Shown here: positions 1,881 to 60,658 of the stretch, in pieces
Position numbering within the stretch: position 1 is the first letter of the stretch
How the letters are laid out: each line of letters opens with the position of its first letter
NCBI GenBank assembly: GCA_036517115.1
Contig: DATDYB010000023.1
Location: forward strand, 2,839-66,838
Direction: 5' to 3'
Length of the DNA stretch: 64,000 nt
DNA from: Minisyncoccota bacterium
Lineage (GTDB): Bacteria; Patescibacteriota; Minisyncoccia; Phycocordibacterales; PALSA-1337
Translations under genes and position numbers: made by a program
The notes under the pieces: generated by a model
Told to the model about the DNA's origin: nothing
Database searches by the model: none
What the model saw: only the letters and a program-made list of their open reading frames with translations

Positions 1881-2098
1881 TTGGTTCGATGAATTCGACT
1901 AAGAAATTCTTTCGCATTCTTAAATTCACTTACAGGTGTGGCAGTTTGAGCGTCATGAAGAAGTTCCTTTATAAATTCAGGTTTGTATTCTCCCTCCTTG
2001 TCTACCTCTATATTCGCCATACCAAAGACGAAAGAACGAAGCACGCTTACTTCGTGCGCGAGTTCTTTGAGAGTTGGAGTTTTTGCTTTCTTTTTCAT
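1877..2098 (-). CDS. putative cognate antitoxin (73 aa)
   Basis: A small acidic/basic protein immediately upstream of the toxin with an ATGA overlap. The family was not recognised. Confidence 0.5.
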   Translation of the reverse strand: MKKKAKTPTLKELAHEVSVLRSFVFGMANIEVDKEGEYKPEFIKELLHDAQTATPVSEFKNAKEFLSRIHRTK

Positions 2099-2104
2099 AC
2101 CAAA

Positions 2105-2133
2105 ACTATAACGGAAATGAGAGAGAAATTCAA
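2105..2133 (-). promoter_or_regulatory. promoter TTGAAT-17 nt-TATAGT, with the -10 box ending 6 nt before the antitoxin ATG
   Basis: The minus strand reads TTGAATttctctctcatttccgtTATAGTtttggtATG. This implies a leaderless transcript. Confidence 0.5.
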
Positions 2134-2170
2134 ATCCCCCGCAGTTCGCTCACGCGAACTGCGGGGGATT
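2133..2170 (-). terminator. rny terminator hairpin
   Basis: A perfect 17-bp stem (aatcccccgcagttcgc / gcgaactgcgggggatt) with a 4-nt loop, about 40 nt downstream of the rny stop, followed on the minus strand by tttgaatttc. Confidence 0.6.
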
Positions 2171-2211
2171 CTATCTTACAAACTTTACGCCTTTATAAAC
2201 CTTACGGACTA

Positions 2212-3741
2212 TTATCGTGCCACCTCAATGGAGCGGGATTCGCGGATGACGTTTACTTTGATCTCACCCGGATATTTGAGTTCGTTTTCGACACGTAGGG
2301 CGATGTCGCGGGCCATTTTCTTGGCTTCAAGATCACTGATTTGTTCTGGAGTGACAAAGATACGGATTTCACGGCCTGCCTGGAGAGCGTAGGATTTCTC
2401 AACGCCTTTGAATGAATTAGCGATTGCTTCCAAATCTTGCAGACGTTTCAAATAGTTTTCAACGGAATCCCTACGAGCACCTGGGCGAGAACCGGAAATG
2501 GCATCCGCCACCTGCACGATGATGGATTCCACAGTTTCATAGGGATATTCTTCGTGATGGGCCTGCATTGCCTTCACAATATCTTCGTGCGCACCGAATT
2601 TCTGGAGGATTCTTCGGCCGATTTCTACGTGCGTGCCAACCACTTCGTGGTCAACCGCTTTGCCGATGTCGTGAAGGAGAGCTCCTGCCTTTGCGACGCC
2701 AACATTCGCACCGAGCTCCTCAGCGAGCATGCCCGCAAGGTGCGCCATTTCTATTGAGTGTTGCAACACATTTTGACCGTAACTGGTACGGAAATGAAGG
2801 CGGCCTACAATTGAAATGATGCGAGGATCCAAGTTGAAAACGCCGCATTCATACGCTGCAGCTTCACCTTTTTCTTTAATAGTTTTATTAATATCTTGCT
2901 GCGCCTTCTCGACAATCTTTTCGATCTTGGCGGGTTGAATACGGCCGTCTTTGATAAGCTCTTCAAGCGCCATGCGTGCCACTTGGCGACGGACAGGGTC
3001 GAACGAGGAGATGGTGATGGTGCCTGGGGTGTCGTCAACAATAACCTCCACACCCGTCATGCGTTCAAATGCTTTGATGTTTCGCCCTTCCTTACCGATG
3101 ATTTTGCCCTTTATGTCATCTGAGGGGATGGGTACTGAGGTAGACATAACGTCTCCTGCGACGGAGGATGCGAGCCTCTGAATGGTGGTGCTTAGGATAT
3201 CTTTTGCTCGTCGTTCGAGTTTCTCCTGTCCGGTAGTCTCGATCTTTCGAAGCCGATTCATGATGTCCTCCTCAAACTTTTGTTCTAGAACGCGGAAAAG
3301 TTCTGCTTTCGCCTCATCTTGTTTCAGGCCAGAAATTCTCTCCAGGGCGTCTTTGCGATCACCTTCGAGTTTAACTGCTTTTTCTCGGATCTCTTTGATT
3401 TCGGTGATTTTTACCTTGATTTCCTCAACCTCTTTATCCAAATCCACTTGTCGTTTGTCGAGTAAGTCTTCTTTTTTAATGAGGCGATTTTCAGTTTGTT
3501 TTAGTTTTTCGTCTTTTTCTCTGACTTCAAGGCGGGCTTCCTGCACTGTTTCGTTCGCCTTTCCTTCTGCTTCGGCGGTAATTTTCTTTGCTTCTTCTTT
3601 TGCCTCAAGCATCATTTGCTTGATTTCAAGCTCGACAGAACCCTTTTTTCCGAGGGAAATGATGAGCCGTAAGAAGTAGCCAAGCGCGACGCCTACCAAG
3701 CTTCCGAAGCCGGCAAGCAGTAATGCTACTTTTAATGACAT
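2212..3741 (-). CDS. rny: ribonuclease Y
   Basis: 509 aa with an N-terminal TM segment, a long coiled coil, a KH domain (GKIIGKEGRNIKAFERMTGVEVIVDD) and an HD domain (LLHDIGKAVDHE). Confidence 0.95.
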   Translation of the reverse strand: MSLKVALLLAGFGSLVGVALGYFLRLIISLGKKGSVELEIKQMMLEAKEEAKKITAEAEGKANETVQEARLEVREKDEKLKQTENRLIKKEDLLDKRQVDLDKEVEEIKVKITEIKEIREKAVKLEGDRKDALERISGLKQDEAKAELFRVLEQKFEEDIMNRLRKIETTGQEKLERRAKDILSTTIQRLASSVAGDVMSTSVPIPSDDIKGKIIGKEGRNIKAFERMTGVEVIVDDTPGTITISSFDPVRRQVARMALEELIKDGRIQPAKIEKIVEKAQQDINKTIKEKGEAAAYECGVFNLDPRIISIVGRLHFRTSYGQNVLQHSIEMAHLAGMLAEELGANVGVAKAGALLHDIGKAVDHEVVGTHVEIGRRILQKFGAHEDIVKAMQAHHEEYPYETVESIIVQVADAISGSRPGARRDSVENYLKRLQDLEAIANSFKGVEKSYALQAGREIRIFVTPEQISDLEAKKMARDIALRVENELKYPGEIKVNVIRESRSIEVAR

Positions 3742-3925
3742 GTTCTAATGTGTTCGCTTTTGCTCCGACTTCGTCACAGTAATAAAGGTAGTGTTGGTCA
3801 TGGTGGGGAGGTATCTTCGTCGATTATTATGTGTAGGGTCAAATTTAGGCGAACACGAATTTAAATCCAGTAATGCCCTCATCGTACAGTAATGAAGCGT
3901 GAATGTCGAGTTTGATTTCAGAAAG

Positions 3926-3959
3926 CAAAAAGCCCATACAGTGACGTGCTGTATGAGCT
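3926..3959 (-). terminator. clpP terminator
   Basis: The minus strand reads agctcatacag-cacgtca-ctgtatgggct followed by ttttt. Confidence 0.6.
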
Positions 3960-3979
3960 TTTTAATCATGGAATGTTGC

Positions 3980-4552
3980 CTAAATTACTTTGTCGACGAC
4001 ACCGTATTTTTTAGCCTCTTCAGCACTCATATAGTAGTCTCGATCGACATCCTTCTCAACCTTGGCGAAAGGCTGGCCGGTATTTTTTGAAAGGATCTTA
4101 TTGACGTTCTCGCGGATTTTAAGGATTTGCTTCGCGGTGATCTCGATGTCTGTTGCCTGCCCTTGTACACCTCCTAGCGGCTGATGGATCATCACTTCAG
4201 CGTTCGGCAGAGCGTAACGCTTGCCTTTTGCTCCAGCTGAAAGAAGTAGTGCGGCAGCGGAAGCAGCAAGTCCCACGCACACCGTCGAAACGTCATTTTT
4301 GATGTGGTTCATGGTATCGAGAATGGCCATGGCAGCAGTGACAGATCCGCCGGGGGAGTTGATGTAGAGGGAGATATCTTTTTTTGAATCTTCTGATTGA
4401 AGGAAGAGGAGCTGAGCGATGACGATGTTTGCGGTGTCATCGTCGATAGGGCCACCAAGAAAGACGATGTTCTCGCGCAAAAGTCGCGAGTAGATATCGT
4501 ATGCTCGTTCTCCGAATTGAGATTTTTCGATGACGGTGGGGATGAGGTTCAT
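3980..4552 (-). CDS. clpP: ATP-dependent Clp protease proteolytic subunit
   Basis: 190 aa, with [34 protein letters not shown] and MIHQPLGG motifs. Confidence 0.95.
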
Positions 4553-4759
4553 ATTTTTAAATGTAAAGTTAAAAGTGAAAAATTAAAAGTTATAAAGTGA
4601 GTATAGCAAAAGGGGATAGGTTTGACAATACTTTTGATGCGTGATATTTTAAGTCGCGAATCGTTCTTTGCATATGGATTGTAGAGACGGCAAAACAACC
4701 GGTGATCCTTGTTAACACAGTGTTGTTGGCGAGTCTAACCAAACAGAGAAAGGAAGATT

Positions 4760-5641
4760 GTGAATACACAATCAACGTTAGTAGTATCCCGCAGAAAGCA
4801 GTTCGCCAGTTATGAAGATAAACCTCTTCCCGTGCTCGACGTGCCGGCGCGGCATCTCACGCCGGGTATTCAGGCACTCTCCGAACTCGGTATTACCACT
4901 AAAGACTGGGAGGCGATTTCCGATGCGAACAGTCCGCTTGCCAAAAGGGTGGCGCGTGCATGGAAAGTAGGGGGATGGTCACTCACCGAGTCTGAAAGCT
5001 TGGCCATCGATCTCCTCGGTACTGATCGAGTGCTTTTGGCACCCGATGTCGCTGAAGTGCAAGACCAATCACCCCAGCCATTTTCTTCGAGAAAAATTCC
5101 CTACTCTGCTGAGACACTCCGCCAGGCAAGTCTCGCTAACGAACATGACAAAGCGGAATGGAGACTTACCTACTGCCTCGGTTTGTCTCCACGACAAGTT
5201 CTCGGTCGGGTGCTCAAGGCTGGGTTGCATGTAGATAGCGAGCATCAGTCGGCGATTAGCATGTGGGAGAAGTACTACCGCTCCACATATCTTGCTGGAT
5301 ACTATCTGGTCGATTGGACCATGCACTATTATGTCAAAGAGAACCACCAACCCTATCGGTGGGATGAGCAAGAAGACGAGATTGCGAAGCTCCCTGAACA
5401 GACCCTTCGAGCGCCGGCGGCGATGATGCTCGAGACATGGGCAAGCTACGCGCTCGTGACCGGGCACCCGAAATGGAATCAGTACTGCTGTTTGCATGGC
5501 ACACGAATTGAAACCATGGAAGAGGGTCCGCAAAAGTTCCTCTCTATATATCCTGGCGAGGGGGCGATCCCTAGAGTGCGTGTCTGTGAAGAAAAAGAAT
5601 TTCACAGCGGCGTCGTATTGCTCCGGAAACCTGATTTCTAA
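4760..5641 (+). CDS. hypothetical protein (293 aa), orphan
   Basis: GTG start preceded by AAAGGAAG, with its own terminator. Visibly GC-richer than its neighbours. No domain recognised. Confidence 0.6.
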   Translation: MNTQSTLVVSRRKQFASYEDKPLPVLDVPARHLTPGIQALSELGITTKDWEAISDANSPLAKRVARAWKVGGWSLTESESLAIDLLGTDRVLLAPDVAEVQDQSPQPFSSRKIPYSAETLRQASLANEHDKAEWRLTYCLGLSPRQVLGRVLKAGLHVDSEHQSAISMWEKYYRSTYLAGYYLVDWTMHYYVKENHQPYRWDEQEDEIAKLPEQTLRAPAAMMLETWASYALVTGHPKWNQYCCLHGTRIETMEEGPQKFLSIYPGEGAIPRVRVCEEKEFHSGVVLLRKPDF

Positions 5642-5656
5642 TTTTAATCACTACAT

Positions 5657-5946: not shown

Positions 5947-5971
5947 ACTCCGAATTTTTCGGAGTTTTTTG
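5947..5971 (+). terminator. intrinsic terminator
   Basis: actccgaa-ttt-ttcggagt followed by tttttg. Confidence 0.65.
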
Positions 5972-6010
5972 TACTTGCCTTGGTGGCACACTTTTGATAC
6001 ACTTAGATAT

Positions 6011-6238
6011 ATGGCTACCAGCAAAAAAAGAATCAACATAAGTGTCTCGAAAGACATGGAAAAAGCCTTAACGATACTTGCTGAAAGGGACGATGTACCT
6101 CAAGCTACCAAAGCATCGGAGCTTCTCGCGCAAGCTATCGAAATAGAAGAGGATGCGGTATGGGAGATGGTTGTTAAGGAACGCATGCGAAAACCTCGCT
6201 TCGTATCACACGAAGAAGCGTGGAATATTAAAAAATGA
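6011..6238 (+). CDS. ribbon-helix-helix (CopG/RelB-like) antitoxin
   Basis: MATSKKRINISVSKDMEKALTILAERDDVPQATKASELL... matches the RHH pattern. It overlaps the toxin by ATGA. TTGCCT-17-TACACT ends 7 nt before the ATG. Confidence 0.65.
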   Translation: MATSKKRINISVSKDMEKALTILAERDDVPQATKASELLAQAIEIEEDAVWEMVVKERMRKPRFVSHEEAWNIKK

Positions 6239-7261: not shown

Positions 7262-8320
7262 TTATTTCTTTCCCTCCAAAAAAGCAAAAACTTTTTCGTT
7301 AGCAAGTACAGTGCGAGCATAAACTCGAGCTCGTTCTTTGTCGACGTCAGGATAGTGAGCAGTCAACGTTGTTACTTCTTTTTCGATCTCGTCATCTGAA
7401 GGAATTAATTTTTCCTTGAGTGCGATCTCGTGGAGAATGAGTGAAAGCTTCGCGCGTTTTTCCGCGTCCTCCCTCCACTCCTTGCGTAAGTCATCTTCAG
7501 TTTTGTTAAGACGTTTCAAGTAGTCTTCTTGTTTGAGTCCCATGCGCACGAGGTCGTCTCTAAATTGGCCGAGCATTTTTGCAAGCTCGTGTTCAACTAA
7601 AAGATTTGGCACATCGATGGTTGATGCACTGATGATCGCTTCGACGATCTGGAGACGTTTTTTTTCCTTGGCTTTACGTTCCTTGTCCTCCTTCATGTTG
7701 GCGTGAAGTTTTTCTTTGAAGTCCCCGACATCTTTAAAGTCACCTAATGTTTTTATGAACTCATTGGTGAACTCTGGCATGTTGTGCTCCACTTCTTTGT
7801 CGTGTTCTTCTTTGCTTTTGCTGTGGTCGTGTTTTGAATGATCTACTCGGGATTTTCTAACCTCAAGAATGACATCATCGATTTCCTTATCAGTGACTTC
7901 GATCGGTGCATCTTTTTCTTTGTGTGCTTCCTGTGCGATTGATTGGTAATCGGCGAGGGTGATAGCAGGTTTCACTGCAACCTTAATAACAAACTCAAGA
8001 GGATTCCCAGGGGCTAGCTTAGTGATTCGGATTTCCGGTCGGTCAATTATTTCAAGCTTCTTTTCCTCGATGATGAGAGGATACACATCGGCGAGTGCAC
8101 GTTCTGCCATTTCCTCAAGAAGCGCCATTTCTCCCACATGCTTCATGAGGATGTTTTCAGGTACCTTACCCTGTCTGAAACCAGGAATAGTTACTTTGCC
8201 TGTCAGGTAGTCGACTGCTGCTTTACGATATGATGCGACACTTTCTGTAGGAATACTGCCTGAAATCTCTACTTCAGAATGCGGTAGGTTTTTAATTGAA
8301 AGATTGGTATATAGGTTCAT
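7262..8320 (-). CDS. tig: trigger factor lacking the PPIase domain
   Basis: The start is probably MNLYTNLSIK (ATG at 8320). The N-domain carries the ribosome-binding motif GFRQGKVP. The C-domain is PEFTNEFIKTLG...IDVPNLLVEHE. The two are joined by only about 22 aa of His/Lys-rich linker. Confidence 0.85.
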   Translation of the reverse strand: MNLYTNLSIKNLPHSEVEISGSIPTESVASYRKAAVDYLTGKVTIPGFRQGKVPENILMKHVGEMALLEEMAERALADVYPLIIEEKKLEIIDRPEIRITKLAPGNPLEFVIKVAVKPAITLADYQSIAQEAHKEKDAPIEVTDKEIDDVILEVRKSRVDHSKHDHSKSKEEHDKEVEHNMPEFTNEFIKTLGDFKDVGDFKEKLHANMKEDKERKAKEKKRLQIVEAIISASTIDVPNLLVEHELAKMLGQFRDDLVRMGLKQEDYLKRLNKTEDDLRKEWREDAEKRAKLSLILHEIALKEKLIPSDDEIEKEVTTLTAHYPDVDKERARVYARTVLANEKVFAFLEGKK

Positions 8321-8330
8321 AAAGTATAAA

Positions 8331-8432
8331 CATACCAATCAACGAATGATGCGAATTCAACGAATGGCTACGAATGCTTCTTCCGGAATTTGTAGCCATT
8401 AGTATATTTGTACTCATTCGTATATTAGTATG
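8331..8432. repeat. about 100-nt imperfect palindromic hairpin element, copy 1 (family shared with 58699-58792)
   Basis: The left arm cataccaatcaacgaatgatgcgaattcaacgaatggctacgaat pairs with the right arm aatttgtagccattagtatatttgtactcattcgtatattagtatg. It is built from TACGAAT/ATTCGTA units. Confidence 0.6.
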
Positions 8433-11450: not shown

Positions 11451-11514
11451 GTGCGAACTTTATCCACACTACAGGGAACTTAGGATCAGACAATTGAAGG
11501 TATAATTGTGCAAT

Positions 11515-22334: not shown

Positions 22335-22401
22335 GAGTGGCATCCGTGGATATCAACAGTCAAATAGCCTCAATGCATTGTATACTGTATACAATCTGTG
22401 T

Positions 22402-35017: not shown

Positions 35018-35099
35018 GTATATAGAAGATGTTTGAAATTGTTTAGAAAAAACGGCAATTTCTCGCTTCGGTAAACTAAAATTCAACAAAGGAGACGGT

Positions 35100-36097: not shown

Positions 36098-36106
36098 TGG
36101 TATACT
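36098..36106 (+). promoter_or_regulatory. extended -10 box TGgTATACT, 7 nt before the pilB ATG
   Basis: ttcTGgTATACTtagcactATG, with no Shine-Dalgarno sequence. Confidence 0.5.
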
Positions 36107-36113
36107 TAGCACT

Positions 36114-46964: not shown

Positions 46965-46973
46965 TGCTATAAT
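46965..46973 (+). promoter_or_regulatory. extended -10 box TGcTATAAT upstream of the tpiA leader
   Basis: gcTGtgcTATAATgc. TG at 46965-46966 and TATAAT at 46968-46973. Confidence 0.45.
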
Positions 46974-47009
46974 GCTGAATTGAAAGAAGCGAAGCGACTA
47001 TGCAATTCG

Positions 47010-47072
47010 CACCCCGTGGAGTAAATCATTTCATGATTTCATTTTGCGGAGCAAAATGTACTCCACAGGGTG
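47010..47072 (+). promoter_or_regulatory. 63-nt three-way-junction RNA structure in the tpiA-pgk leader (function unknown)
   Basis: P1 is CACCCCGTGGAGTA / TACTCCACAGGGTG (14 bp, 1 mismatch). P2 is aatcat-ttc-atgatt. P3 is cattttgc-gga-gcaaaatg. A further hairpin gattttc...gaaaatc lies at 47075-47104, just before the ATG. Confidence 0.45.
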
Positions 47073-47108
47073 ATGATTTTCTAATCGTAGAGCTCAAGAA
47101 AATCAATC

Positions 47109-49052: not shown

Positions 49053-49408
49053 AGATTTTCTCGAATTTTTTGTGCGTTGGTTGTAAAGCTGTTTTTGTCG
49101 TCTTTGGTGGATGCAGGATCAGGAAAAACCCAGAAATGTGCATGAGGAACTTCTTCACCGTAAATTCTACCTTGAATGAGCTCTGTCCCGAATGCTTTTC
49201 TTTGTGCTAAGGCGATTTTTTTGGTGATCTTAAAATATTCTTCGGCCTGAGGCACGTCCCATACCCATCGGTAATGTTGCTTGGGAATAACGAGGGTGTG
49301 TCCGGGGGATTGAGGATGAATGTCTAAAAAGGCGAGAAAGTTTTCATTCTCGAACACGATCTCGGCTTGAATTTCTTTTTTCACAATTTTACAGAAAATG
49401 CAGTCCAC
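49049..49408 (-). CDS. HIT-family (histidine triad) protein
   Basis: GTG start. [15 protein letters not shown] and the triad HAHFWV are present. Confidence 0.8.
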
Positions 49409-49444
49409 GAAGATAGTATAAGGTATTAAGTATGAAGACGGAAA

Positions 49445-50078: not shown

Positions 50079-50087
50079 TGATACAAT
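50079..50087 (+). promoter_or_regulatory. extended -10 box TGaTACAAT, 6 nt before the recJ ATG
   Basis: gaTGaTACAATaaaagcATG. Confidence 0.5.
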
Positions 50088-50093
50088 AAAAGC

Positions 50094-51818
50094 ATGTCGA
50101 AATTCTCCATCCGAGAGGCGATTCCAAAAGAAGCGCATGAAGAGCTAGCTTCCCACTCGGACATTGTGCGACACCTCTTGTTTCACCGTGGCATTACCAA
50201 GAAGGAAGAAGCAGAAAAGTTTTTAAGACCGAACTATGACCTTCACGGCCACGATCCTTTTGCTATGAAAGATATGGAGAAAGCGGTGCTCCGTATCGAA
50301 AAAGCGTTCTCGAATAATGAAAAGATTGCTATTTTCAGTGACTATGATTGCGATGGAATACCCGCCGGCGTGATTCTACACGATTTTTTTAAGCAGATCG
50401 GATACGAAAACTTCATCAACTACTTCCCGCACCGTTACGAAGAAGGGTATGGTCTAAACATCCCCGCAATTGAAGAATTTAAAAAAGAGGGTGTGTCGCT
50501 CATCATCACCGCAGACTGTGGCACGTCCGACGTCTTGCAGGTTGAACGGGCAAATGAGCTTGGTCTCGATGTCATCATCACCGACCACCATTTGTCGCAG
50601 GAGACAAAGATCCCGCCCGCGTATGCCATCTTGAATCCTAAGCAACCCGACTGCGCGTATCCTGAAAAAATGCTCTGTGGCTCAGGTGTCATCTTCAAGC
50701 TCATTCAAGCTCTTACTACGAGACTGGCAACTAGTAACTGGCAACTGAAAACTGGACAGGAAAAATGGTTGTTGGATATGGTGGGTTTAGCAACCATGGC
50801 CGATATGGTGCCGCTTCAGGGAGAGAATCGCGTGTTCGCACACTACGGCTTGACGGTGCTTCGCAAATCGCGTCGGCTAGGACTCAAAAAGCTTTTAGAA
50901 AAAAGTAAAGTCAATCAGCTGCACTTGTGTGAAGATGATATCGGTTTTACTATCGCGCCGCGAATCAACGCCGCTTCGAGAATGGGAGAACCTTCCGAGG
51001 CATTCAGGCTTTTGACGGCATCAGACGAAGCAACTGCCGAGGAGCTTGCTAATTATTTAAATAAAATTAATGACGAGAGAAAGGGCTTGGCGGCCTCAAT
51101 GGTTAAGGAGATCAAAAAGATTTTAAGCGTGCGAACTAAAGAAGAGGAGAAAAAAGTGTTAGTCATCGGCAATCCGAAGTGGAAACCGCCACTCCTTGGG
51201 CCCGTCGCTAATAATCTTTCAGAAATGTATAGTGTGCCGGTGTTCCTGTGGGGCAGAGCAGACGGTGATTGCATCAAAGGTTCCTGCAGGGCCAGTGGGG
51301 CCGTTAATGTTTTGGAGCTTATGAAAGCGGCGCCGACAGATCTATTTCTAGGCTACGGTGGACACAAGTCATCGGGCGGCTTTTCCATCTCTCATGAAAA
51401 CGTACATCGACTTGAAACGGAATTAGTGCATGCGTTCGACAGAGTCGTGGGCATACAAAAAGAGGAAGAAGAAATTTTTATTGATATGCGTCTTGATCTT
51501 AACGCGGTGAATTGGAACACCTATGCTCATGTTGAGAAATTGGCGCCTTTTGGGTATGGCAACTCGAAACCGGTATTTCTTTTAGAGAATATTGTACCTT
51601 CAGATGTGCGCCGCTTCGGTAAAGAAGAAAATCATCTTGAGTTGGTATTTAGGGGAGAGCGAGGTAATAAAATTCCCGCCATCGGCTTTTTCACCACACC
51701 CGAAGATTTCCCGAAGCCACCGATGAAAGGTGAAGCCTTGAATCTCGTGGCCACCATCGAAAAGTCCATGTTCCGAAATTTCCCAGAACTCCGTCTTCGT
51801 ATTATCGATATTATTTGA
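50094..51818 (+). CDS. recJ: single-stranded-DNA-specific exonuclease RecJ
   Basis: 574 aa with DHH motifs (IFSDYDCDGI, ITADCGT, IITDHH) and a DHHA1 domain (GGHKSSGGFS). Confidence 0.88.
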   Translation: MSKFSIREAIPKEAHEELASHSDIVRHLLFHRGITKKEEAEKFLRPNYDLHGHDPFAMKDMEKAVLRIEKAFSNNEKIAIFSDYDCDGIPAGVILHDFFKQIGYENFINYFPHRYEEGYGLNIPAIEEFKKEGVSLIITADCGTSDVLQVERANELGLDVIITDHHLSQETKIPPAYAILNPKQPDCAYPEKMLCGSGVIFKLIQALTTRLATSNWQLKTGQEKWLLDMVGLATMADMVPLQGENRVFAHYGLTVLRKSRRLGLKKLLEKSKVNQLHLCEDDIGFTIAPRINAASRMGEPSEAFRLLTASDEATAEELANYLNKINDERKGLAASMVKEIKKILSVRTKEEEKKVLVIGNPKWKPPLLGPVANNLSEMYSVPVFLWGRADGDCIKGSCRASGAVNVLELMKAAPTDLFLGYGGHKSSGGFSISHENVHRLETELVHAFDRVVGIQKEEEEIFIDMRLDLNAVNWNTYAHVEKLAPFGYGNSKPVFLLENIVPSDVRRFGKEENHLELVFRGERGNKIPAIGFFTTPEDFPKPPMKGEALNLVATIEKSMFRNFPELRLRIIDII

Positions 51819-51830
51819 TATTCTATTTCC

Positions 51831-52556
51831 ATGAATGAACAGACTGTAATCTTCACTGATGGCTCCTCTCGCGGCAACCCTGGTCCCGGCGGCTATGCTG
51901 CTATTATTGTTACTGGTGGGAAAGTGATTGAATTCGGCGGACAAGAAGCTCATACAACCAATAATCGTATGGAGCTCCGCGCCGCCATCGAAGCATTGAA
52001 GTTTCTAAAAGGTTCGACCTTTCTACAGATCCAAGGTCGAACCTTAGTCTACACAGACTCTCGGTATTTAATAAACGGCATTACCAAATGGGTGTTCGGT
52101 TGGCAGAAGAATGGTTGGATAACAGGAGCAAAAGAAGAAGTTCAGAATCGAGACCTCTGGGAAGCACTCGTTGCCTTAGTGCGCGGCAAAAAGATCGACT
52201 GGCAATACATCGGTGGTCACGTGGGTATCGCGGGAAACACAAGGTGCGATGAGATCGCCACGACGTTTGCTGATAATAAAAAAATTGATCTGTATTCAGG
52301 TTTCGTTGAGTCTTGTCCGATTAAGGATATTTTAAATATTAATATAGACCACACGTTGGTTGCAGAAAAATCAGAAACAAAAAATCGCTCACGAGCAAAA
52401 GCATATTCTTATCTCTCAATGATAAACGGTACCATTAAAACCCATGCCACCTGGGCTGAATGCGAAGCACGTGTTAAAGGTGTGAAAGGGGCGAAGTTTA
52501 AAAAGGCTCTCGATGCTGTGGAAGAGAAGAATATCACGGGTGAATGGAGAGCGTAA
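51831..52556 (+). CDS. rnhA: ribonuclease HI with C-terminal hybrid-binding-like (Cauli_VI-type) domain
   Basis: The RNase H core has FTDGSSRGNPGPGGYAA, TNNRMELRAAIEAL, YTDSRY and GHVGIAGNTRCDEIA. The C-terminal 50 aa, AYSYLSMINGTIKTHATWAECEARVKGVKGAKFKKALDAVEE, match the W-x-E-C-x(3)-V-x-G-x(2)-G-A-x-(F/Y)-K-K pattern. Confidence 0.85.
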   Translation: MNEQTVIFTDGSSRGNPGPGGYAAIIVTGGKVIEFGGQEAHTTNNRMELRAAIEALKFLKGSTFLQIQGRTLVYTDSRYLINGITKWVFGWQKNGWITGAKEEVQNRDLWEALVALVRGKKIDWQYIGGHVGIAGNTRCDEIATTFADNKKIDLYSGFVESCPIKDILNINIDHTLVAEKSETKNRSRAKAYSYLSMINGTIKTHATWAECEARVKGVKGAKFKKALDAVEEKNITGEWRA

Positions 52557-52945: not shown

Positions 52946-52954
52946 TGTTACAAT
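52946..52954 (+). promoter_or_regulatory. extended -10 box TGtTACAAT, 7 nt before the comEC ATG
   Basis: ttTGtTACAATagagcgtATG. This favours the start at 52962 rather than the GTG at 52923. Confidence 0.5.
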
Positions 52955-52961
52955 AGAGCGT

Positions 52962-54470
52962 ATGGGTCAGCCAATGTTTCTTGTTGCTGTATCAGGATTT
53001 ATCGGGGGCGTGGCACTTCACTCCTTTTTTGATGTGGGCGCGGCGTTTTCACTTTTCGTCGTCTTTTTGGGAATTTCTCTGTTTGTTTACTATAGATTAA
53101 AAAAGAGACAACATCCCGGACAAGATTTTAAAGTGACACTCTTGCTCAGCGTATCCTTTATATGCTTCGGATTGGGACTTATACGTTACGATATCTCTCT
53201 CATCGACAGGGAGTCTGCGCTCACTCGGCGTATCGGAGAGAACGTCGAACTTTCTGGGATCGTCGTCGAAGAGCCGCAGGACAGGGAAAACATGCAGAGA
53301 TTGGTAGTGGAAATAGAAGAAGCAGAGACCAAAGCTTTGGTATGGACGACATTTTACCCGAGATTCGAATATGGTGACCGGATCAGCGTCTCGGGAATTC
53401 TCAAAGAGCCTCAAAATTTTGAAAGCGAGAACGGCCGAACGTTCGACTACCGTTCTTACCTAGCCAAAGACGGAATCTATTTCGAGTTCATGCGTCCCGA
53501 GCTCGAACCTGTTTCAAAAGACCACGGTAGTGTCATTAAAAAATATCTTTTTGGGTTCAAACATGCTTTTGTGGAGAATTTCAAAGAAAGTATTCCTGAA
53601 CCTTCCTCATCTTTGCTCGCCGGGCTCCTGGTGGGGGAGAAGTCATCGCTTGGTAAGGATTTGGAGAATGACCTTCGTACTGTTGGCCTCATCCATATGG
53701 TGGTGCTTTCAGGCTACAACATCACCCTCATCGCGGATTTCATTATGAAGATCTTTGCCTTTCTACCCAGGGCCCTCGGCCACACCTTTGGTATCATCTC
53801 CATTATTCTTTTTGCTCTCATGACGGGTGGCTCGGCGACGGTGGTGCGAGCAACTATCATGGCACTCCTTGCTGTAGCGGCGAGATCAAGTGCGCGAATA
53901 TACGATGTGGCGCGGGCTCTTATTATTGCCGGAACGGTCATGGTGATCCATAACCCGAAGATTCTTATTTTTGATCCTTCGTTCCAGCTAAGTTTTATGG
54001 CCACGCTTGGGCTTATCATCCTTTCCCCGAAAGTTGAAACGAGACTTCAATGGATTCCCGCGAAATATAAATTACGGGAGATCGCCACAGCGACGATCGC
54101 GACGCAGATCTTCGTTTTGCCTCTGCTTCTTTATATGACAGGGATGTTTAGTCTTATCTCACTTCCCGCAAACATTTTGGTTTTGATCGCAGTACCATAT
54201 GCTATGCTTCTCGGATTTTTCGCTGGTGCTTTGGGCTTTGTTTCCTTTGTCGCCTCTCTGCCGTTTGCCTACGTTGCCTACGCACTCCTCGCGTACCAGC
54301 TTACCCTTGTAGAATTCTTTGCTTCTTTGCCGTTCGCTTCGATCGCTATTCCATACTTTCCGGCATGGCTCATGGTCGGTGTTTACCTCTGTGGTGTCGT
54401 GTTCGTCTGGTGGAGAAATAGAAGACGAGTACCCACCGTACCGGATAATATTATCTACTTGCCTGAATGA
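52962..54470 (+). CDS. comEC: ComEC/Rec2 DNA internalisation channel protein without the metallo-beta-lactamase domain
   Basis: A polytopic membrane protein with a DUF4131/OB-like insert (VELSGIVVEEPQDRENMQRLVVEIE...) and a competence domain (GLIHMVVLSGYNITL...MTGGSATVVRA). It ends after the last TM segment. Confidence 0.8.
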   Translation: MGQPMFLVAVSGFIGGVALHSFFDVGAAFSLFVVFLGISLFVYYRLKKRQHPGQDFKVTLLLSVSFICFGLGLIRYDISLIDRESALTRRIGENVELSGIVVEEPQDRENMQRLVVEIEEAETKALVWTTFYPRFEYGDRISVSGILKEPQNFESENGRTFDYRSYLAKDGIYFEFMRPELEPVSKDHGSVIKKYLFGFKHAFVENFKESIPEPSSSLLAGLLVGEKSSLGKDLENDLRTVGLIHMVVLSGYNITLIADFIMKIFAFLPRALGHTFGIISIILFALMTGGSATVVRATIMALLAVAARSSARIYDVARALIIAGTVMVIHNPKILIFDPSFQLSFMATLGLIILSPKVETRLQWIPAKYKLREIATATIATQIFVLPLLLYMTGMFSLISLPANILVLIAVPYAMLLGFFAGALGFVSFVASLPFAYVAYALLAYQLTLVEFFASLPFASIAIPYFPAWLMVGVYLCGVVFVWWRNRRRVPTVPDNIIYLPE

Positions 54471-55050
54471 AATTCTTTTCGATCACTTCCCAATTCAGAT
54501 TCGCAAAGAAGTCTTCAATGTAGCTTTTCTTTCCGGAAGGTTGATAGTCAAAGACGAATGAGTGTTCCCACATATCGAGGCCAAGAATGAGTTGGCATCC
54601 GTTTAGTTGTCCCAGATGTTGTTCGTCTACCCACGCATGAACAAGTTTTTTTACAATAGGATCGTAGTAGAGCATTGCCCAGCCGATGCCACGGGTGAGA
54701 GCAATCGACTTGAACATGGCGAGCCAGCCGTCGAATAAACCGAACTGTTCCTCGATTGCTTTTTTAAGCACACTCCCAGCGGGGAGGGGTCTTGCTCCGT
54801 TTTCTAAACTTTTAAAATAATATTCGTGATTCCGCATGCCGTTCCATTCGAAGCTGAAGCGGCGCTGTAGTTCGCCAAGTGCATACGCATTTTTTTCAGC
54901 ATCCAGTTTCATTTCGGTAATCTTTTCGAAAATTAAATTAACATGCTTCACATATCCGGAATAAAGTTTCAGATGTTCCTCGACACTTTTTTTAGAAATA
55001 CCTTTCAGTTCTGGGATATTAAATTTTTGCTCGTCGTATTTGAAGTTCAT
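54451..55050 (-). CDS. Fe/Mn-family superoxide dismutase
   Basis: The likely start is MNFKYDEQKF (ATG at 55050). EEHLKLYSGYV, WNGMRNHEYYF and LGLDMWEHSFVFDY motifs are present. Its 3-prime end overlaps the comEC 3-prime end by 20 bp (convergent). Confidence 0.85.
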   Translation of the reverse strand: MNFKYDEQKFNIPELKGISKKSVEEHLKLYSGYVKHVNLIFEKITEMKLDAEKNAYALGELQRRFSFEWNGMRNHEYYFKSLENGARPLPAGSVLKKAIEEQFGLFDGWLAMFKSIALTRGIGWAMLYYDPIVKKLVHAWVDEQHLGQLNGCQLILGLDMWEHSFVFDYQPSGKKSYIEDFFANLNWEVIEKNFIQASR

Positions 55051-55101
55051 AGATTCACGATTAATGTATATTTTTAGTATAACATTTTCTGAAGTTTTTA
55101 A

Positions 55102-55110
55102 TGCTACAAT
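55102..55110 (+). promoter_or_regulatory. extended -10 box TGcTACAAT, 6 nt before the ATG at 55117
   Basis: aaTGcTACAATtttctcATG. Confidence 0.5.
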
Positions 55111-55116
55111 TTTCTC

Positions 55117-55971
55117 ATGCAAAAAAGGGAGCGGATCAAATACGGAGTACTGGTAGGGCTTCTATTGTTTACATCTTTTGTGTGGTACGTGATCGCGCTG
55201 GAGTCGAGACAAGGGAAGCTTACGGTGACGTTTTTAGACATCGGACAGGGTGATGCGATTTTCATCGATACTCCGAGCGGTAATCAGGTGTTGGTGGACG
55301 GAGGTGCGAATAAAAAAGTGCTTTCTGAGCTTGGTAGAGTAATGCCGTTTTTCGACCGCTCTATCGATATGATAATCGCCACTCATCCCGACAGGGATCA
55401 CATCGGCGGTCTGCCGTGGGTAATGGAGAAATACGCGGTGACGAGCGTTGTGGAACCGGGGGTCAAAGGAGAATCCGCCGAATCCGTCCATTTCAATACC
55501 CTGGTTAGTGAGCGGGGTGTTAAAAAAGAGCTGGCCCGAAGAGGAGCGGTCTACGATCTGGGCGAAGGAGTAAAACTTACCATTCTCTTCCCCGACAGGG
55601 ATGTTTCGGGGCTTGAAACAAATGACGCCTCGATTGTCGCGAGGCTCACCTACGGAAACACGTCATACCTACTCACAGGGGACTCACCGCAGAAAATTGA
55701 AAACTATTTGGTGTCGCTTGATGGAGTCGGACTTAAAAGCGATGTTCTGAAAGCTGGGCATCATGGTTCCCGCACTTCAACAAGCGAAGCATTCGTGGCG
55801 GCAGTGCTGCCGTCTATTGCGGTAATTTCCGCAGGTAAAAATAATTCATACGGCCATCCTCATAAGGAAGTGCTTGGCGTACTCGAAAAATTTAAAGTAA
55901 AGATTCTTCGCACCTATGACCGCTCGAGAATTAAAATAATCTCTGACGGGACTTCTTTGAAGATAAAATAA
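55117..55971 (+). CDS. membrane-anchored ComEC-type metallo-beta-lactamase-fold protein (separate polypeptide)
   Basis: The N-terminal TM segment is YGVLVGLLLFTSFVWYVIAL. It is followed by LTVTFLDIGQGDAIFIDTPSGNQVLVDGG, IATHPDRDHIGGL, LLTGDS and AGHHGS, as in the ComEC C-terminal domain. Confidence 0.8.
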   Translation: MQKRERIKYGVLVGLLLFTSFVWYVIALESRQGKLTVTFLDIGQGDAIFIDTPSGNQVLVDGGANKKVLSELGRVMPFFDRSIDMIIATHPDRDHIGGLPWVMEKYAVTSVVEPGVKGESAESVHFNTLVSERGVKKELARRGAVYDLGEGVKLTILFPDRDVSGLETNDASIVARLTYGNTSYLLTGDSPQKIENYLVSLDGVGLKSDVLKAGHHGSRTSTSEAFVAAVLPSIAVISAGKNNSYGHPHKEVLGVLEKFKVKILRTYDRSRIKIISDGTSLKIK

Positions 55972-56121: not shown

Positions 56122-56362
56122 AAAGGAGACCGGCTTTTTTGAGAGTAGCGTAAGCCCCGTTCTTATTGATCGTTTTGATTGCTCGTGTTGAGAGAGTAAG
56201 AATGATGTGCTTTTTAAGTTCAGGAACGTAAATTTTCTTCTTCTTGAGATTAACCTGTTTTCGGACTTTTCCGGTAGGATTATACTGGGTAGCACGAGTA
56301 CGGTTGCTGTAACCGCCTCCTACAATGCTCCCTCTTTTTGTTACTGCACAGATTTTAGCCAT
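56120..56362 (-). CDS. rpmB: 50S ribosomal protein L28
   Basis: 80 aa, MAKICAVTKRGSIVGGGYSNRTRATQYNPTGKVRKQVNL... The TGaTAGCAT box ends 7 nt before the ATG. Confidence 0.85.
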   Translation of the reverse strand: MAKICAVTKRGSIVGGGYSNRTRATQYNPTGKVRKQVNLKKKKIYVPELKKHIILTLSTRAIKTINKNGAYATLKKAGLL

Positions 56363-56402
56363 GAAGGGTATGCTATCATAAGGGTAAATTTAATCAAGTT
56401 TT

Positions 56403-57020: not shown

Positions 57021-58121
57021 CTTTTCCGCCTCGCACACTTTGTATGATGTGTTTTCTGTGACAATGCGAATTTTTCCGACAAAGGTGTTCATGAGTTTGT
57101 CGTAGCCCAAGAATGTGTTAAATACTAATCGCAATTTTCCTGCTGTAGCTAAATGATGGGGAGCTTCTTTGATAAGTCGTTCGCTTGCTTCAGACGATGT
57201 TTTGATGCCTTGATGGAAGGGGGGATTGGAAATGATTAAATCATATTTTTCATCAATATCTGAAAACACATCAGAGGGAATGATTCGAACGTTGGAAACC
57301 TTGTTCGCTTCCATGGTGAGACGTGCTGATTCGAGTGAAAGCGCGTTCACATCGGATAGATGAATCACACTCTCCGGTGATATTTTCTTAAGATACATAC
57401 CAATAACCCCAGAACCACAAGCGATATCAAGTAGTGTGATTTTTGTATGAAGGTCTATGTGAGGTATTTTGTCAGAGATGGACGTGTCTTGCGTATCCTG
57501 CAAGGTGAGCGATTCAAGCAATAATTTTGTTCCTGCGTCGAGCTTACCCAGGCTGAACACACCGGGTAGATTGCAGACCGTGAAGGAGACTTCGCCAATC
57601 ATCGCTTCGTATCGACTTATAAATTCCTCAGGTTGTTTGCTGATCTCTGTTTTTTTCTCTGCCTCAAACCACACACAGTGCCGTGCCGCGTCGTTCGCAG
57701 TAATTGGACCAATCAATCTTTCGATATCTTTCTTGGCGCTCCTGATACCCCCATCGTTCTCTCCGACGACGACAACTTTTCCACCGTGTGCCGTATTTAA
57801 TGATGCAAGCGTCAGCACATATTCAATAAGCGGTTTGCTTTTAGGTAGGTAGACGATCGTGGTGTCATGAAGGGACGATGAAGTATGCCAATGGTTGAAA
57901 ACGGTAGTTACATTTTTGTCTTCAGCAGATGCGGTCTGTACTCTTTTGTAATCAGCGTAATCGAAATAGAAGAGGGTGAGGGTGCTTTCAGGGAGTTTTT
58001 CTTTAAGTGCCACACCAACTTCCTCATCGGGACAGTTTAAAACAAGGAGGTTGCTCCCTGTGATTTTTTCGATATTTCTGATCACCAGCTGTGATGGTTT
58101 GCTTAGTTCACGTGATTCCAT
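57009..58121 (-). CDS. class I SAM-dependent rRNA methyltransferase (RsmC/RlmG-like)
   Basis: 370 aa in a two-lobed arrangement. The C-terminal lobe has LLDIACGSGVIG and IISNPPFHQG. Confidence 0.75.
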   Translation of the reverse strand: MESRELSKPSQLVIRNIEKITGSNLLVLNCPDEEVGVALKEKLPESTLTLFYFDYADYKRVQTASAEDKNVTTVFNHWHTSSSLHDTTIVYLPKSKPLIEYVLTLASLNTAHGGKVVVVGENDGGIRSAKKDIERLIGPITANDAARHCVWFEAEKKTEISKQPEEFISRYEAMIGEVSFTVCNLPGVFSLGKLDAGTKLLLESLTLQDTQDTSISDKIPHIDLHTKITLLDIACGSGVIGMYLKKISPESVIHLSDVNALSLESARLTMEANKVSNVRIIPSDVFSDIDEKYDLIISNPPFHQGIKTSSEASERLIKEAPHHLATAGKLRLVFNTFLGYDKLMNTFVGKIRIVTENTSYKVCEAEKLKT

Positions 58122-58284
58122 ATGGACTAGCCTAGCATAATTTGCGTTTTTTTAAAGTTTGTATTACTGTACATTCATAGCTTTTTGACTAAAGCTTTTA
58201 TTAATCACAAGGGTAAGTATGAGTAATCTCAAGGCCAACTCGGCCGGAAGATGAAGAACTTCAAACTTCCCGTTATTAAAAAGA

Positions 58285-58698
58285 ATGCCCACCATCAATC
58301 AGTTAGTGCGAAGAAATAGAAAGAAATTGTACCGCAAGCCAAAAGCGGTGGCGTTAATGCGTGGTTTTAATACCATCAAGAACCGTCCTCGTTTTTACCC
58401 ATCTCCTTTCAAGCGAGGAGTATGTATCAAGGTGACGACCAAAACGCCGAAGAAGCCGAACTCAGCTATCCGAAAGATCGCCCGCGTTCGTTTGACGAAT
58501 GGTATGGAGGTTACCGCCTACGTGCCCGGCATCGGACACAACCTACAGGAGCACTCAGTAGTACTTCTTCGAGGTGGCCGTGTGAAGGACGTCGGTATTC
58601 GATACACCATCGTTCGAGGCGTGCTCGACGCCGGTGGGGTAGAGAAACGTATGAAAGGTCGCAGCCAATACGGAGCTAAGAGGCCTAAAAAGGCTTAG
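58285..58698 (+). CDS. rpsL: 30S ribosomal protein S12
   Basis: MPTINQLVR..., [18 protein letters not shown] and [19 protein letters not shown]. Confidence 0.95.
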
Positions 58699-58792
58699 AT
58701 ACCAATATACTAATTAGTGCCAATATACGAATGAATACGAATCGGGATTTGCAGCCATTAGTAGATTTGTATCATTTGTAGATTGGTATATT
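58699..58792 (+). repeat. hairpin element copy 2 (family shared with 8331-8432) filling the rpsL-rpsG spacer
   Basis: The ends ataccaat / attggtat pair. The inner stem tacgaatgaatacgaat / atttgtatcatttgta has G-U pairs valid only on the plus strand. The 3-prime 45 nt are about 80 percent identical to the tig-proximal arm of copy 1. The terminal TGgTATATT lies 7 nt before the rpsG ATG. Confidence 0.6.
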
Positions 58793-58799
58793 AAATTCT

Positions 58800-59270
58800 A
58801 TGCGAAGAAAAATAAAAGCACGACGACCCCTGAATCCCGACCTGGTGTACAGCTCGGTTAAAGTTTCAAAATTTATCAACTACATCATGGAACGTGGCAA
58901 GAAAAACACTGCCCGAGAGATCGTCTATGATTGTTTTGAAGCTATCAAGGAAAAAGCAAAAGTGGAAAATCCGATGGAAGTATTTGATACTGCGCTCAAG
59001 AACACTGCGCCGAATATGGAAGTACGTTCACGACGAGTGGGAGGTGCCAACTACCAGGTTCCTCGAGAAGTTCGACCTGAACGAAAACAGGCGCTTTCAA
59101 TGAAGTGGATTATTGACGCAGCTCGAAACAAAAAGGGCGCTGAAATGCACAAAAAGCTAGCGGATGAGATCATTCTTGCAGCAAAGGGAGAAGGTGAGGC
59201 GGTGAAGAAGCGTGAGAACACGCACAAGATGGCTGAGGCCAATAAAGCCTTTGCCCATTTCGCCTGGTAG
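58800..59270 (+). CDS. rpsG: 30S ribosomal protein S7
   Basis: 156 aa with KFINYIMERGKKNTA, RRVGGANYQVP and AHFAW at the end. Confidence 0.95.
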   Translation: MRRKIKARRPLNPDLVYSSVKVSKFINYIMERGKKNTAREIVYDCFEAIKEKAKVENPMEVFDTALKNTAPNMEVRSRRVGGANYQVPREVRPERKQALSMKWIIDAARNKKGAEMHKKLADEIILAAKGEGEAVKKRENTHKMAEANKAFAHFAW

Positions 59271-59337
59271 TTTCGCGCCAAGCGTCGAAACTACAGCTGC
59301 GAAATGGAGCCCGAGCCTTCCGAGGCGAGGTGCCCGC

Positions 59338-59494
59338 TTGATTTTCGTTCCTACCGAAAATCATGTCGCAAGATTTCCCATAACGTAGTTATAAAAAATT
59401 TGCGACTGCTTGGTAGAAGACACGGAACAGACGTGGAACGAAGCCAGCACGGAACGAAAGGAACAAAACGAAAAGCGGGACAGCCCGCTTTTTT
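59338..59494 (+). repeat. about 157-nt intergenic unit, copy B (paralog of 34803-34960)
   Basis: ttgattttcgttcctaccgaaaatcatgtcgcaagattt... It ends with agcggg-acag-cccgct followed by tttttt (59474-59494). Confidence 0.6.
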
Positions 59495-59522
59495 CGTGCT
59501 AGTGTCCCAACAGGAGAACATT

Positions 59523-59804
59523 ATGAAGAAATATTCAGTCTATATCCGCTGTTCATACGAACCCCTGGATAGTGCCAGCCCCACGCATCGAGAAGTGCAT
59601 TCCATGGAAGTATCTACAGAACTTTTGCCGTTCGTCGCCGCACTTAAGGATGCTCATCTTGCAGAGCCGTGCTGGGAAATAGAGACAATCCTCATTCTTC
59701 CGGAAGGCGCGCTCTGTCAACTACCAATTGACGAGCATCACGACTCAATCGATGAGTTTCTCAACCACTTCGGCGGCGTCAGGTTTAAAAAGAAAATAGG
59801 GTGA
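59523..59804 (+). CDS. hypothetical protein (93 aa) inserted in the str operon
   Basis: ATG at 59523 preceded by CAGGAGAA. Begins MKKYSVYIRCSYEPLDSASP... No domain recognised. Confidence 0.45.
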   Translation: MKKYSVYIRCSYEPLDSASPTHREVHSMEVSTELLPFVAALKDAHLAEPCWEIETILILPEGALCQLPIDEHHDSIDEFLNHFGGVRFKKKIG

Positions 59805-59992
59805 GTAATGTAAAAATAACGCGTGCATACAGGCGTCGCACAGAGGATTCCTTAATTGGAGTCTTTTTTCTTTTCAGATTTTCCATTTCCGTTTGAATTC
59901 TTCGAGGGTCATGCCTTTTCCGGTTCTCTTCGGGATACGAAACCGCTTCGCCGGAAGTACTTTCTTTTTTCGCTCCATGATATCGTAACGCT

Positions 59993-60658
59993 ATGAATGT
60001 ACGCATTGAGCCATCATGGAAAGAGGCCCTCTCTTCTGAATTTGATCAGGAATATTTTAAAACGCTCACGGAATTTGTAAAAAGCGAGTACAAGAGCGCG
60101 ACAGTATATCCGCCGCCGAAGTTTGTGTTTCATGCGTTTGATCTCTGTCCATTCGACAAAGTAAAGGTGGTTATCTTAGGGCAGGATCCGTATCACGGGC
60201 CTAGTCAGGCCCATGGCCTCTCATTTTCCGTCCCCGAGAAAGTAGCGATCCCGCCTTCGCTTCGAAATATCTACAAGGAAATAGCGAATGATATTGGAGG
60301 GACTATTCCTGCTCATGGCAATCTCGAGCATTGGGCCAAGCAAGGAGTACTTCTTTTAAACGCTACGCTCACCGTGCGAGCGAGCATACCCGGTTCCCAC
60401 CAACACAAGGGCTGGGAGGAATTCACAAATACAGTGATTCGTACCATTTCAGAGAAGAAAGAGAATGTGGTCTTTATTCTGTGGGGGAGATACGCTCGTG
60501 ACAAAAAGGGCCTTATTGATGGCACCAAACATCTCATCCTCGAATCAGCCCATCCTTCACCATTTTCCGCCACTGCCTTTTTCGGTTCCAAACCTTTCAG
60601 TAAAACCAATGAATATCTTAAGAAGCATAAAAAAGAGGGTATTAAGTGGGCAGGGTAA
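59993..60658 (+). CDS. ung: uracil-DNA glycosylase (family 1)
   Basis: 221 aa with VVILGQDPYHGPSQAHGLSFSV, GVLLLNATLTV and HPSPFSA motifs. Confidence 0.9.
   Translation: MNVRIEPSWKEALSSEFDQEYFKTLTEFVKSEYKSATVYPPPKFVFHAFDLCPFDKVKVVILGQDPYHGPSQAHGLSFSVPEKVAIPPSLRNIYKEIANDIGGTIPAHGNLEHWAKQGVLLLNATLTVRASIPGSHQHKGWEEFTNTVIRTISEKKENVVFILWGRYARDKKGLIDGTKHLILESAHPSPFSATAFFGSKPFSKTNEYLKKHKKEGIKWAG

Follow-up and report, generated by a model that had tools for sequence, protein, structure and literature searches.

Genomes of GeneMarkS-2 group C, mainly those of Actinobacteria and Deinococcus-Thermus, carry a Pribnow box 6 to 8 nt from the start codon in 25 to 50% of their operons (PMC6028130). In mycobacteria, a 5' ATG or GTG is necessary and sufficient for leaderless initiation, a 5'-terminal AUG (or GUG) has been shown to be required both there and in Escherichia coli (PMC4633059), and it is established for mycobacteria, Deinococcus, and also E. 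coli that ribosomes bind leaderless mRNAs directly at their 5'-terminal AUG (PMC4633059, PMC4007540). Here we describe a comparable arrangement in a 64,000-nt stretch of contig DATDYB010000023.1, referred to below as the window, which comes from an uncultured bacterium of the Patescibacteria (candidate phyla radiation, or CPR), class Paceibacteria (“Parcubacteria”). Hexamers resembling a -10 box, most of them preceded by TGn, end 6 to 8 nt before the start codons of many of its genes, and we consider it quite probable that they are promoters giving leaderless mRNAs, predicted for about one-third of the genes in the window.

The likeness to group C genomes (Mycobacterium tuberculosis, M. smegmatis, and Deinococcus deserti) lies in the TANNNT hexamer found 6 to 8 nt before many operon-first starts, in the lack of a Shine-Dalgarno (SD) site there, and in start codons that are ATG and rarely GTG. 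The window differs in its phylum, Patescibacteria/CPR, in its mid rather than high G+C content (44 to 49%), and in its -10 boxes, which are mostly TGn-extended. The remaining genes in group C use SD sites, whereas here such sites account for about 3 to 5%, and the other genes are either coupled to a gene upstream or have leaders without an SD. We regard this lack as a departure from the typical group C pattern and not as an argument against leaderless transcripts.

An anti-SD motif has been detected in only 48% of Parcubacteria by a study of rRNA and ribosomal proteins, in the text of which the words “promoter” and “UTR” do not occur (Tsurumaki et al. 2022, PMC9297842). Full-text literature searches, whose coverage did not extend to a study of Nanosynbacter transcription start sites (PMID 35975994), returned no description of leaderless transcripts in Patescibacteria/CPR, Saccharibacteria, or Parcubacteria/Paceibacteria; the papers that matched did so by coincidence, through their reference lists.

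Enrichment of -10 boxes at start codons

Open reading frames (ORFs) of 100 aa or more were called blind in the window by greedy choice of the longest, with the first ATG, GTG, or TTG taken as the start. The clade set comprised the window and 80 related loci (1.36 Mb of relatives; 1.42 Mb in total), with 1,394 ORFs having at least 60 nt upstream. Placement in the Paceibacteria is based on the EF-G gene (60761-62905), the best relatives of which are 61 to 83% identical, occur only in metagenome-assembled genomes, and bear the labels Nomurabacteria, Zambryskibacteria, Kaiserbacteria, Paceibacterota, Minisyncoccia, or Patescibacteria. Sequence identical to the window is present in ENA metagenome contigs reaching 73 kb. 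By spacer we mean the number of nucleotides between the end of the -10 hexamer and the start codon, and expected counts for the window were taken from positions 12 to 47 of the same upstream regions.

A preliminary description of this DNA had listed 15 such sites. When the upstream 50 nt were reread, all 15 hexamers were found at the coordinates given for them, with spacers of 6 to 8 nt before the named start codons and no GGAG-like sequence in between; nine TGn extensions had been claimed and all are genuine, and the site at 6011 has a tenth that had not been marked (TGaTACACT). The test by which that description proposed to stand or fall, enrichment of the spacing beyond the listed genes, is strongly positive in the window taken together with the 80 relatives. 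Among 44 blind window ORFs, 11 have TANNNT at a spacer of 6 to 8 nt (4.3 expected; P=0.005) and 7 have the extended form TGnTAnnnT, searched as TGNTANNNT (0.5 expected; P=1e-6). Counted over both strands without regard to gene calls, the window holds 122 occurrences of TGNTANNNT, 17 of them with an ATG 6 to 8 nt downstream, and 11 of these 17 ATGs begin ORFs of 75 codons or more. In the clade set, TANNNT occurs 171 times at spacer 6, compared to roughly 40 per position, and TGNTANNNT occurs 58, 15, 15, and 13 times at spacers 6, 7, 8, and 9, against 3.4 per position elsewhere. Almost all loci with at least 12 genes surpass their own expectation, so the excess is a property of the clade rather than being due to a handful of genomes.

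Chance or artefact might be suspected, since the raw clade profile of TANNNT has a period-3 ripple (spacers 0, 3, 6, 9, and 12) produced by in-frame TAA and TAG stops that precede the first start codon, intergenic DNA is A/T-rich, and several starts had been picked with the motif in view. This explanation can be regarded as effectively refuted. The peak survives blind start calling and the exclusion of TAA and TAG (TA[CT]NNT, 86 at spacer 6 against a background of about 20), the Poisson probability of the extended motif is 2e-49 at spacer 6 and 3e-50 over spacers 6 to 8, and the arrangement is kept in orthologues. E. coli K-12, passed through the same pipeline as a control (150 kb, 148 ORFs), gives no TANNNT peak and no TGNTANNNT at 6 to 8 nt.

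After curation, about 16 to 18 of some 48 window genes are of the leaderless type, and about 16 of some 33 genes that head a transcription unit. The others comprise 4 to 5 genes with SD-like sites, 9 that are tightly coupled (gaps of -4 to +2), and a remainder that has leaders without an SD or is unassigned. The preliminary description had pictured an SD-bearing minority among otherwise leaderless genes. That minority exists, but most genes have neither an SD site nor a close -10 box: about three-quarters of the ORFs in the window and the 80 loci have neither signal, and such genes are tightly coupled to the gene upstream or have A/U-rich leaders without an SD.

Promoter grammar

Sigma-70 promoters classically fall into two types, one built from a -35 and a -10 element and the other from an extended -10 box with TG one base upstream, for which the -35 element is dispensable. 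In the clade, TGn precedes 34% of the hexamers at spacer 6, compared to 3 to 5% at other spacers, and these extended boxes have no TTG (-35) peak upstream. Hexamers without TGn have TTG at a spacer of exactly 17 bp, with 18 cases compared to about 4.5 at other spacers. TGn is carried by 12 of the 18 candidates in the window. The element would be a housekeeping promoter of the sigma-70 type, usually an extended -10 box (TGnTAnnnT) without a -35 and less often TTGnnn, 17 bp, and TAnnnT. Compared to known extended -10 promoters (TGnTATAAT), the promoter itself is the same and is peculiar only in its position relative to the start codon. A generic scan for -35/-10 consensus promoters between 46 and 64 kb found 20, compared to 24.8 in shuffles, and thus no enrichment; this does not count as contrary evidence, since the promoters there appear to be extended -10 boxes without a -35. 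TGnTAnnnT, together with consensus TTGACA at 17 bp, also lies 20 to 100 nt upstream of the leadered genes at 749, 4760, 9558, and 11361, which suggests that it is the organism's general promoter.

The hexamer might instead be an A/U-rich, non-SD ribosome-binding or enhancer motif on leadered mRNAs, as in the Bacteroidota-like GeneMarkS-2 group B. Marginal SD use in the clade would suit such a motif, as would upstream regions that are A-rich from -13 to -4 before all genes (with T at -1 in 50%) and the report that part of the Parcubacteria lacks an anti-SD motif (PMC9297842). Raw TANNNT at 6 to 8 nt is also frequent before coupled genes, largely because of upstream stop codons (TAA...), and for this confounded comparison TA[CT]NNT and TGNTANNNT were used in its place. 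The first and internal genes of group B operons share their motif, whereas here TGNTANNNT at 6 to 8 nt precedes 7.7% of genes that are divergent from their neighbor or at least 60 nt from it and 2.3% of those less than 15 nt behind a gene on the same strand, a depletion of about 3-fold before operon-internal genes. Nor would a ribosome-binding motif be expected to have TG exactly one base upstream or TTG exactly 17 bp upstream, to keep its spacing to a single position, or to occur with consensus TTGACA 20 to 100 nt upstream of leadered genes. These features support a sigma-70-type promoter, and a ribosome-binding site seems very improbable.

RNA polymerase begins transcription some 7 nt beyond the -10 box, a hexamer that spans -12 to -7 by the established E. 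coli geometry. The clade peak at spacer 6 is one position wide, which places the A of the ATG at the canonical +1. A polymerase starting about 7 nt past the box would give a 5' end at the A of the AUG for spacer 6, or 1 to 2 nt before it for spacers 7 and 8, and an end at or near the AUG would leave no room for an SD site. Translation would then follow the leaderless route, in which a 70S ribosome or a 30S-IF2-fMet-tRNA complex binds the 5'-terminal AUG directly. Start codons behind extended -10 boxes in the clade are 96% ATG, compared to 68% ATG and 26% GTG behind SD-like sites, and the 96% fits the requirement for a 5'-terminal AUG. The 18 window candidates start with 17 ATG and one GTG, that of HIT.

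Conservation in orthologues

The arrangement is retained in several sets of orthologues despite the divergence of their flanks. For rnhA, 13 of 18 have a -10 box 6 to 9 nt before the start, 11 of them with TGn. Eight of 10 HIT orthologues have the box at 6 to 9 nt, with ATG as their start codon, and the same holds for about 16 of 25 MBL orthologues with respect to the box; recJ keeps the arrangement in 4 of 5. The resulting 64 to 80% for rnhA, HIT, recJ, and MBL can be compared to the approximately 73% of leaderless status kept between mycobacterial orthologues (PMC4633059). Two genes behave differently. The arrangement of comEC is found in only 2 of 11 orthologues and is not conserved, and the promoter of rpsG is confined to the window, as rpsG directly follows rpsL, within a few nucleotides, in about 60 relatives. 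For rpmB, an element of the form TTGCAT-N17-TGATAGCAT is kept across the clade at 7 to 27 nt from the ATG. Its retention with a -35 at a variable distance argues that it is a promoter and that short leaders without an SD are tolerated.

Leaderless or secondary promoters

The promoters could also be genuine and yet often secondary, with mRNA coming mainly from upstream promoters or read-through, leadered and without an SD, and with the leaderless form a minor isoform. Several observations weigh in this direction or otherwise against leaderless transcripts. At clpP, a promoter 47 nt upstream of the start (4600-4628, minus strand; TTGTCA, 17 bp, TGcTATACT) matches 10 of 12 consensus positions and has TG; it is probably the true clpP promoter, with a leader of about 41 nt and no SD. 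The close box of clpP (4550-4565, minus strand; TACATT at 4565-4560, 7 nt, ATG 4552) has no TGn and no -35, so that the listing of clpP among the leaderless genes in the preliminary description does not hold up well. Only 12 nt separate rnhA from recJ, on whose transcript it could also be carried. Among the nearest rpmB orthologues, five have this promoter 20 to 27 nt from the ATG, and with SD-less leaders of that length leaderlessness is not obligatory in the clade. The three-quarters of clade ORFs with neither signal imply that SD-less leadered initiation works, and the extended motif still stands before 8 of 345 tightly coupled genes. Spacers of 7 to 8 nt, as in half of the window cases, allow a leader of 1 to 2 nt. 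The blind-start excess in the relatives amounts to only about 12% of the unit-heading genes, so the window's fraction of about 50% may be inflated by curation. Finally, the starts of tig, the giant gene at 11515, 22402, comEC, and 42667 were selected with the motif in view; among the first four of these, only that of tig is independently backed, with position 2 of the Trigger_N model at residue 6.

Against the dominance of upstream promoters, terminator-like hairpins adjoin 2098, 6011, pilB, and HIT on the upstream side, and in the 35 to 50 nt between hairpin and start the only promoter-like element at these four genes is the start-adjacent -10 box. Most candidates have no further extended -10 box within 60 nt upstream. 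The sharp peak at spacer 6 and the retention in orthologues would not have been selected if position were irrelevant. We consider it unlikely that the close promoters are mostly secondary. Leaderless transcription, the reading that we prefer, is supported by the geometry, the promoter grammar, the enrichment, and the orthologues, and it is from these that we infer the transcription start sites and the route of translation.

Several start codons have support that is independent of the motif. The starts of S7, L28, RNase H, HIT, and trigger factor are supported by Pfam alignments that begin at residues 1 to 6, and public gene calls on the identical contigs share the starts of S7, UDG, EF-G, and the methyltransferase at 58121. 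As to the names given earlier, Pfam backs clpP, tig, pilB, HIT, recJ, rnhA, comEC, MBL, L28, S7, and UDG; Pfam matches neither gene 22402 nor the two ORFs that had been called antitoxins, and those names are tentative.

Candidate sites in the window

Three candidates, at 557, 42667, and 58121, all on the minus strand, had been overlooked. The first, outside the range of the earlier listing, is on sequence grounds the cleanest leaderless candidate in the window: an ORF resembling a helix-turn-helix regulator (555-592) with TTGACA at 592-587, 17 bp, TACAAT at 569-564, 6 nt, and ATG 557. The gene at 42667 (42665-42680) has TATAAT at 42680-42675 and a 7-nt spacer to ATG 42667. Its product begins MLKKILKIF..., resembling a membrane anchor, and ATG 42667 appears more plausible as the start than TTG 42715. 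An RsmC/RlmG-type methyltransferase gene (58119-58137) has TGcTAGGCT, 7 nt, and ATG 58121.

The four candidates behind terminators are on both strands. The small ORF at 2098, with no Pfam match (2096-2133, minus strand), has TTGAAT at 2133-2128, 17 bp, TATAGT at 2110-2105, 6 nt, and ATG. A terminator with an 18-bp stem (2171-2132) lies directly upstream, from which it follows that a 2098 transcript must begin within about 35 nt of the ATG. The small ORF at 6011, likewise with no Pfam match (5995-6013, plus strand), has TTGCCT as a -35 at 17 bp and its extended box 7 nt from ATG 6011, directly downstream of a terminator at 5947-5965. If the ORFs at 2098 and 6011 were antitoxins, they would fit the predominantly leaderless toxin-antitoxin transcripts of mycobacteria (PMC8485053). 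HIT (49406-49420, minus strand) has TATACT at 49420-49415, 6 nt, and GTG 49408, with a terminator at 49471-49451 directly upstream. In front of pilB (36098-36116, plus strand; TGgTATACT, 7 nt, ATG 36114), about 45 nt separate the ATG from the end of the preceding gene's terminator.

The type IV pilus cluster has heptanucleotide tandem repeats immediately 3' of the start codons of two genes: AAGATTC x3.6 (39079-39103, 100% matches) in one that carries a prepilin N-methylation motif, and AAAATTT x4.0 (40568-40595) in the next large gene of the cluster. Changes in copy number of these 7-nt units would shift the frame and could give slipped-strand phase variation.

The trigger factor gene tig (8318-8337, minus strand) has TGgTATGTT, 8 nt, and ATG 8320, with a terminator-like hairpin at about 8488-8472 upstream. 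Two candidates on the plus strand have no TGn. The giant gene of about 2,556 aa (11501-11517) has TATAAT 8 nt before ATG 11515 and no -35, and ATG 11515 was chosen over TTG 11506 with the motif in view; gene 22402 (22390-22404) has TACAAT 6 nt before an ATG that was also chosen on the motif. The giant gene (11515-19185) and a second one of about 4,010 aa (22774-34806) are separated by an 853-aa gene and cover about one-third of the window.

The recJ gene (50079-50096, plus strand) has TGaTACAAT, 6 nt, and ATG 50094. The promoter of rnhA (51816-51833, plus strand; TGaTATTCT, 6 nt, ATG 51831) lies inside the last recJ codons, and the recJ stop codon TGA supplies its TG. At the recJ-rnhA junctions of the relatives L006, L046, L069, and L014, the codons of the conserved recJ C-terminal ...IVDI (GTT GAT ATx) spell TGATAT. 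The comEC gene (52946-52964, plus strand) has TGtTACAAT, 7 nt, and ATG 52962, a putative start chosen over GTG 52923. The MBL-fold gene (55102-55119, plus strand) has TGcTACAAT, 6 nt, and ATG 55117. Its start is overlapped by the superoxide dismutase ORF (54451-55122, minus strand), in which position 18 of the Pfam Sod_Fe_N model aligns at residue 42. That ORF has probably been called too long; its start is likely ATG 55050 (MNFKYDEQKFNIPELKG...), downstream of TGtTATACT at 55084, and with this start the overlap disappears.

The L28 gene rpmB (56360-56378, minus strand) has TGaTAGCAT, 7 nt, and ATG 56362, with TTGATT as a -35 at 16 bp. A 10-bp palindrome, ATGCTATCAT / ATGATAGCAT (56370-56379), spells an extended -10 box on both strands, and read on the plus strand it gives TGcTATCAT (56371-56379), 23 nt from the ATG of the divergent M50 peptidase gene at 56403. 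A single symmetric element at this place could drive divergent transcription of rpmB and the M50 gene.

The S7 gene rpsG (58784-58802, plus strand) has TGgTATATT, 7 nt, and ATG 58800. The str operon is broken up in this region (58698-60761), with a 101-nt rpsL-rpsG spacer that has its own promoter and, between rpsG and fusA, a terminator, a small ORF preceded by an SD site (59523-59804), and ung. The last of these (59978-59995, plus strand) has TGaTATCGT, 6 nt, and ATG 59993. Short tandem direct repeats lie in or immediately upstream of the promoter regions of tig (8388-8430, period 18), rpsG (58756-58793, period 17), and clpP (4565-4598, period 7). The word CCATTAGTA, shared by the tig and rpsG repeats, was considered as a regulator site and rejected, as it has 14 matches in the window, mostly coding and barely above the number in shuffles.

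Leadered genes and SD use

The AGGAG-type comparators at 749, 4760, 35100, and 59523, all on the plus strand, match their earlier description. Two have full promoters and leaders: 749 (674-751) has TTGACA, 17 bp, and TGgTATGAT (674-702), a leader of about 40 nt, and AAGGA 4 nt before its ATG, and 4760 (4622-4762) has TTGACA, 17 bp, and TGaTATTTT (4622-4650), a leader of about 100 nt, and AAGGA 5 nt before its GTG. Gene 35100 (35088-35102) has AAGGAG 5 to 6 nt before GTG 35100. At 59523 (59497-59525), TGcTAGTGT is followed by a leader of only about 10 nt with AGGAG before ATG 59523, and a bidirectional terminator (59471-59492) precedes this promoter.

Across the clade, GGAG, GAGG, and AGGA give a small peak at spacers 5 to 8, an excess of about 3 to 5% of the ORFs, whereas the SD peak of the E. 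coli control takes in about 50% of genes. Weak SD use and A-rich upstream regions are shared with SD-poor Parcubacteria (PMC9297842) and Bacteroidota. The few good AAGGAG sites suggest that the genome may retain an anti-SD; four universal 16S rRNA patterns have no match in the window or the 80 related loci. No tRNA genes were detected in the window, and an Rfam scan of its whole length at gathering thresholds gave no matches.

Two long leaders have predicted structures. The leader of gene 11361 (minus strand), of about 55 nt, follows the promoter TTGACC-17-TGaTATATT (11450-11422) and contains a hairpin resembling a terminator, with a T-run (11411-11392; fold z = -2.9), which may be an attenuator. 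The tpiA gene (47109; Pfam TIM) has TGCTATAAT at 46965 followed by a leader of about 130 nt. The leader, within 46965-47108, folds into several stems (-40.9 kcal/mol, z = -4.5, with none of 200 shuffles as stable), has no Rfam match, and may be an undescribed cis-regulatory RNA.

Implications

Leaderless transcription is well understood elsewhere, and the present case extends known biology and overturns nothing. The arrangement appears to belong to the wider clade, with marginal SD use throughout the 80 related genomes, which would make this a third large bacterial lineage with common leaderless mRNAs, after Actinobacteria and Deinococcus-Thermus. Promoters of this kind would be compact enough to sit in the last codons and stop of the upstream gene, as between recJ and rnhA.

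Annotation of CPR genomes relies almost entirely on automatic gene callers. A -10 box 6 to 7 nt upstream could mark the true start, so that N termini might be corrected in thousands of metagenome-assembled genomes; in the window this would concern 42667 in place of 42715, superoxide dismutase, and possibly comEC and the giant gene. Genetic tools for Patescibacteria are only now emerging, and for expression cassettes TGnTATAAT-N6-ATG designs would be preferable to SD-based ones.

We suggest, tentatively, that leaderless and SD-independent initiation may be how genes are normally expressed in the Paceibacteria and possibly in much of the CPR, with a possible mechanistic link to their reduced ribosomes; those of Parcubacteria are reported to have lost the anti-SD motif and often to lack bS21 and uL1. 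Such a link between ribosome reduction or anti-SD loss and the build of the mRNA is testable. If the suggestion is true, translation throughout a very large radiation of bacteria would be mostly “ancestral,” resembling that of archaea.

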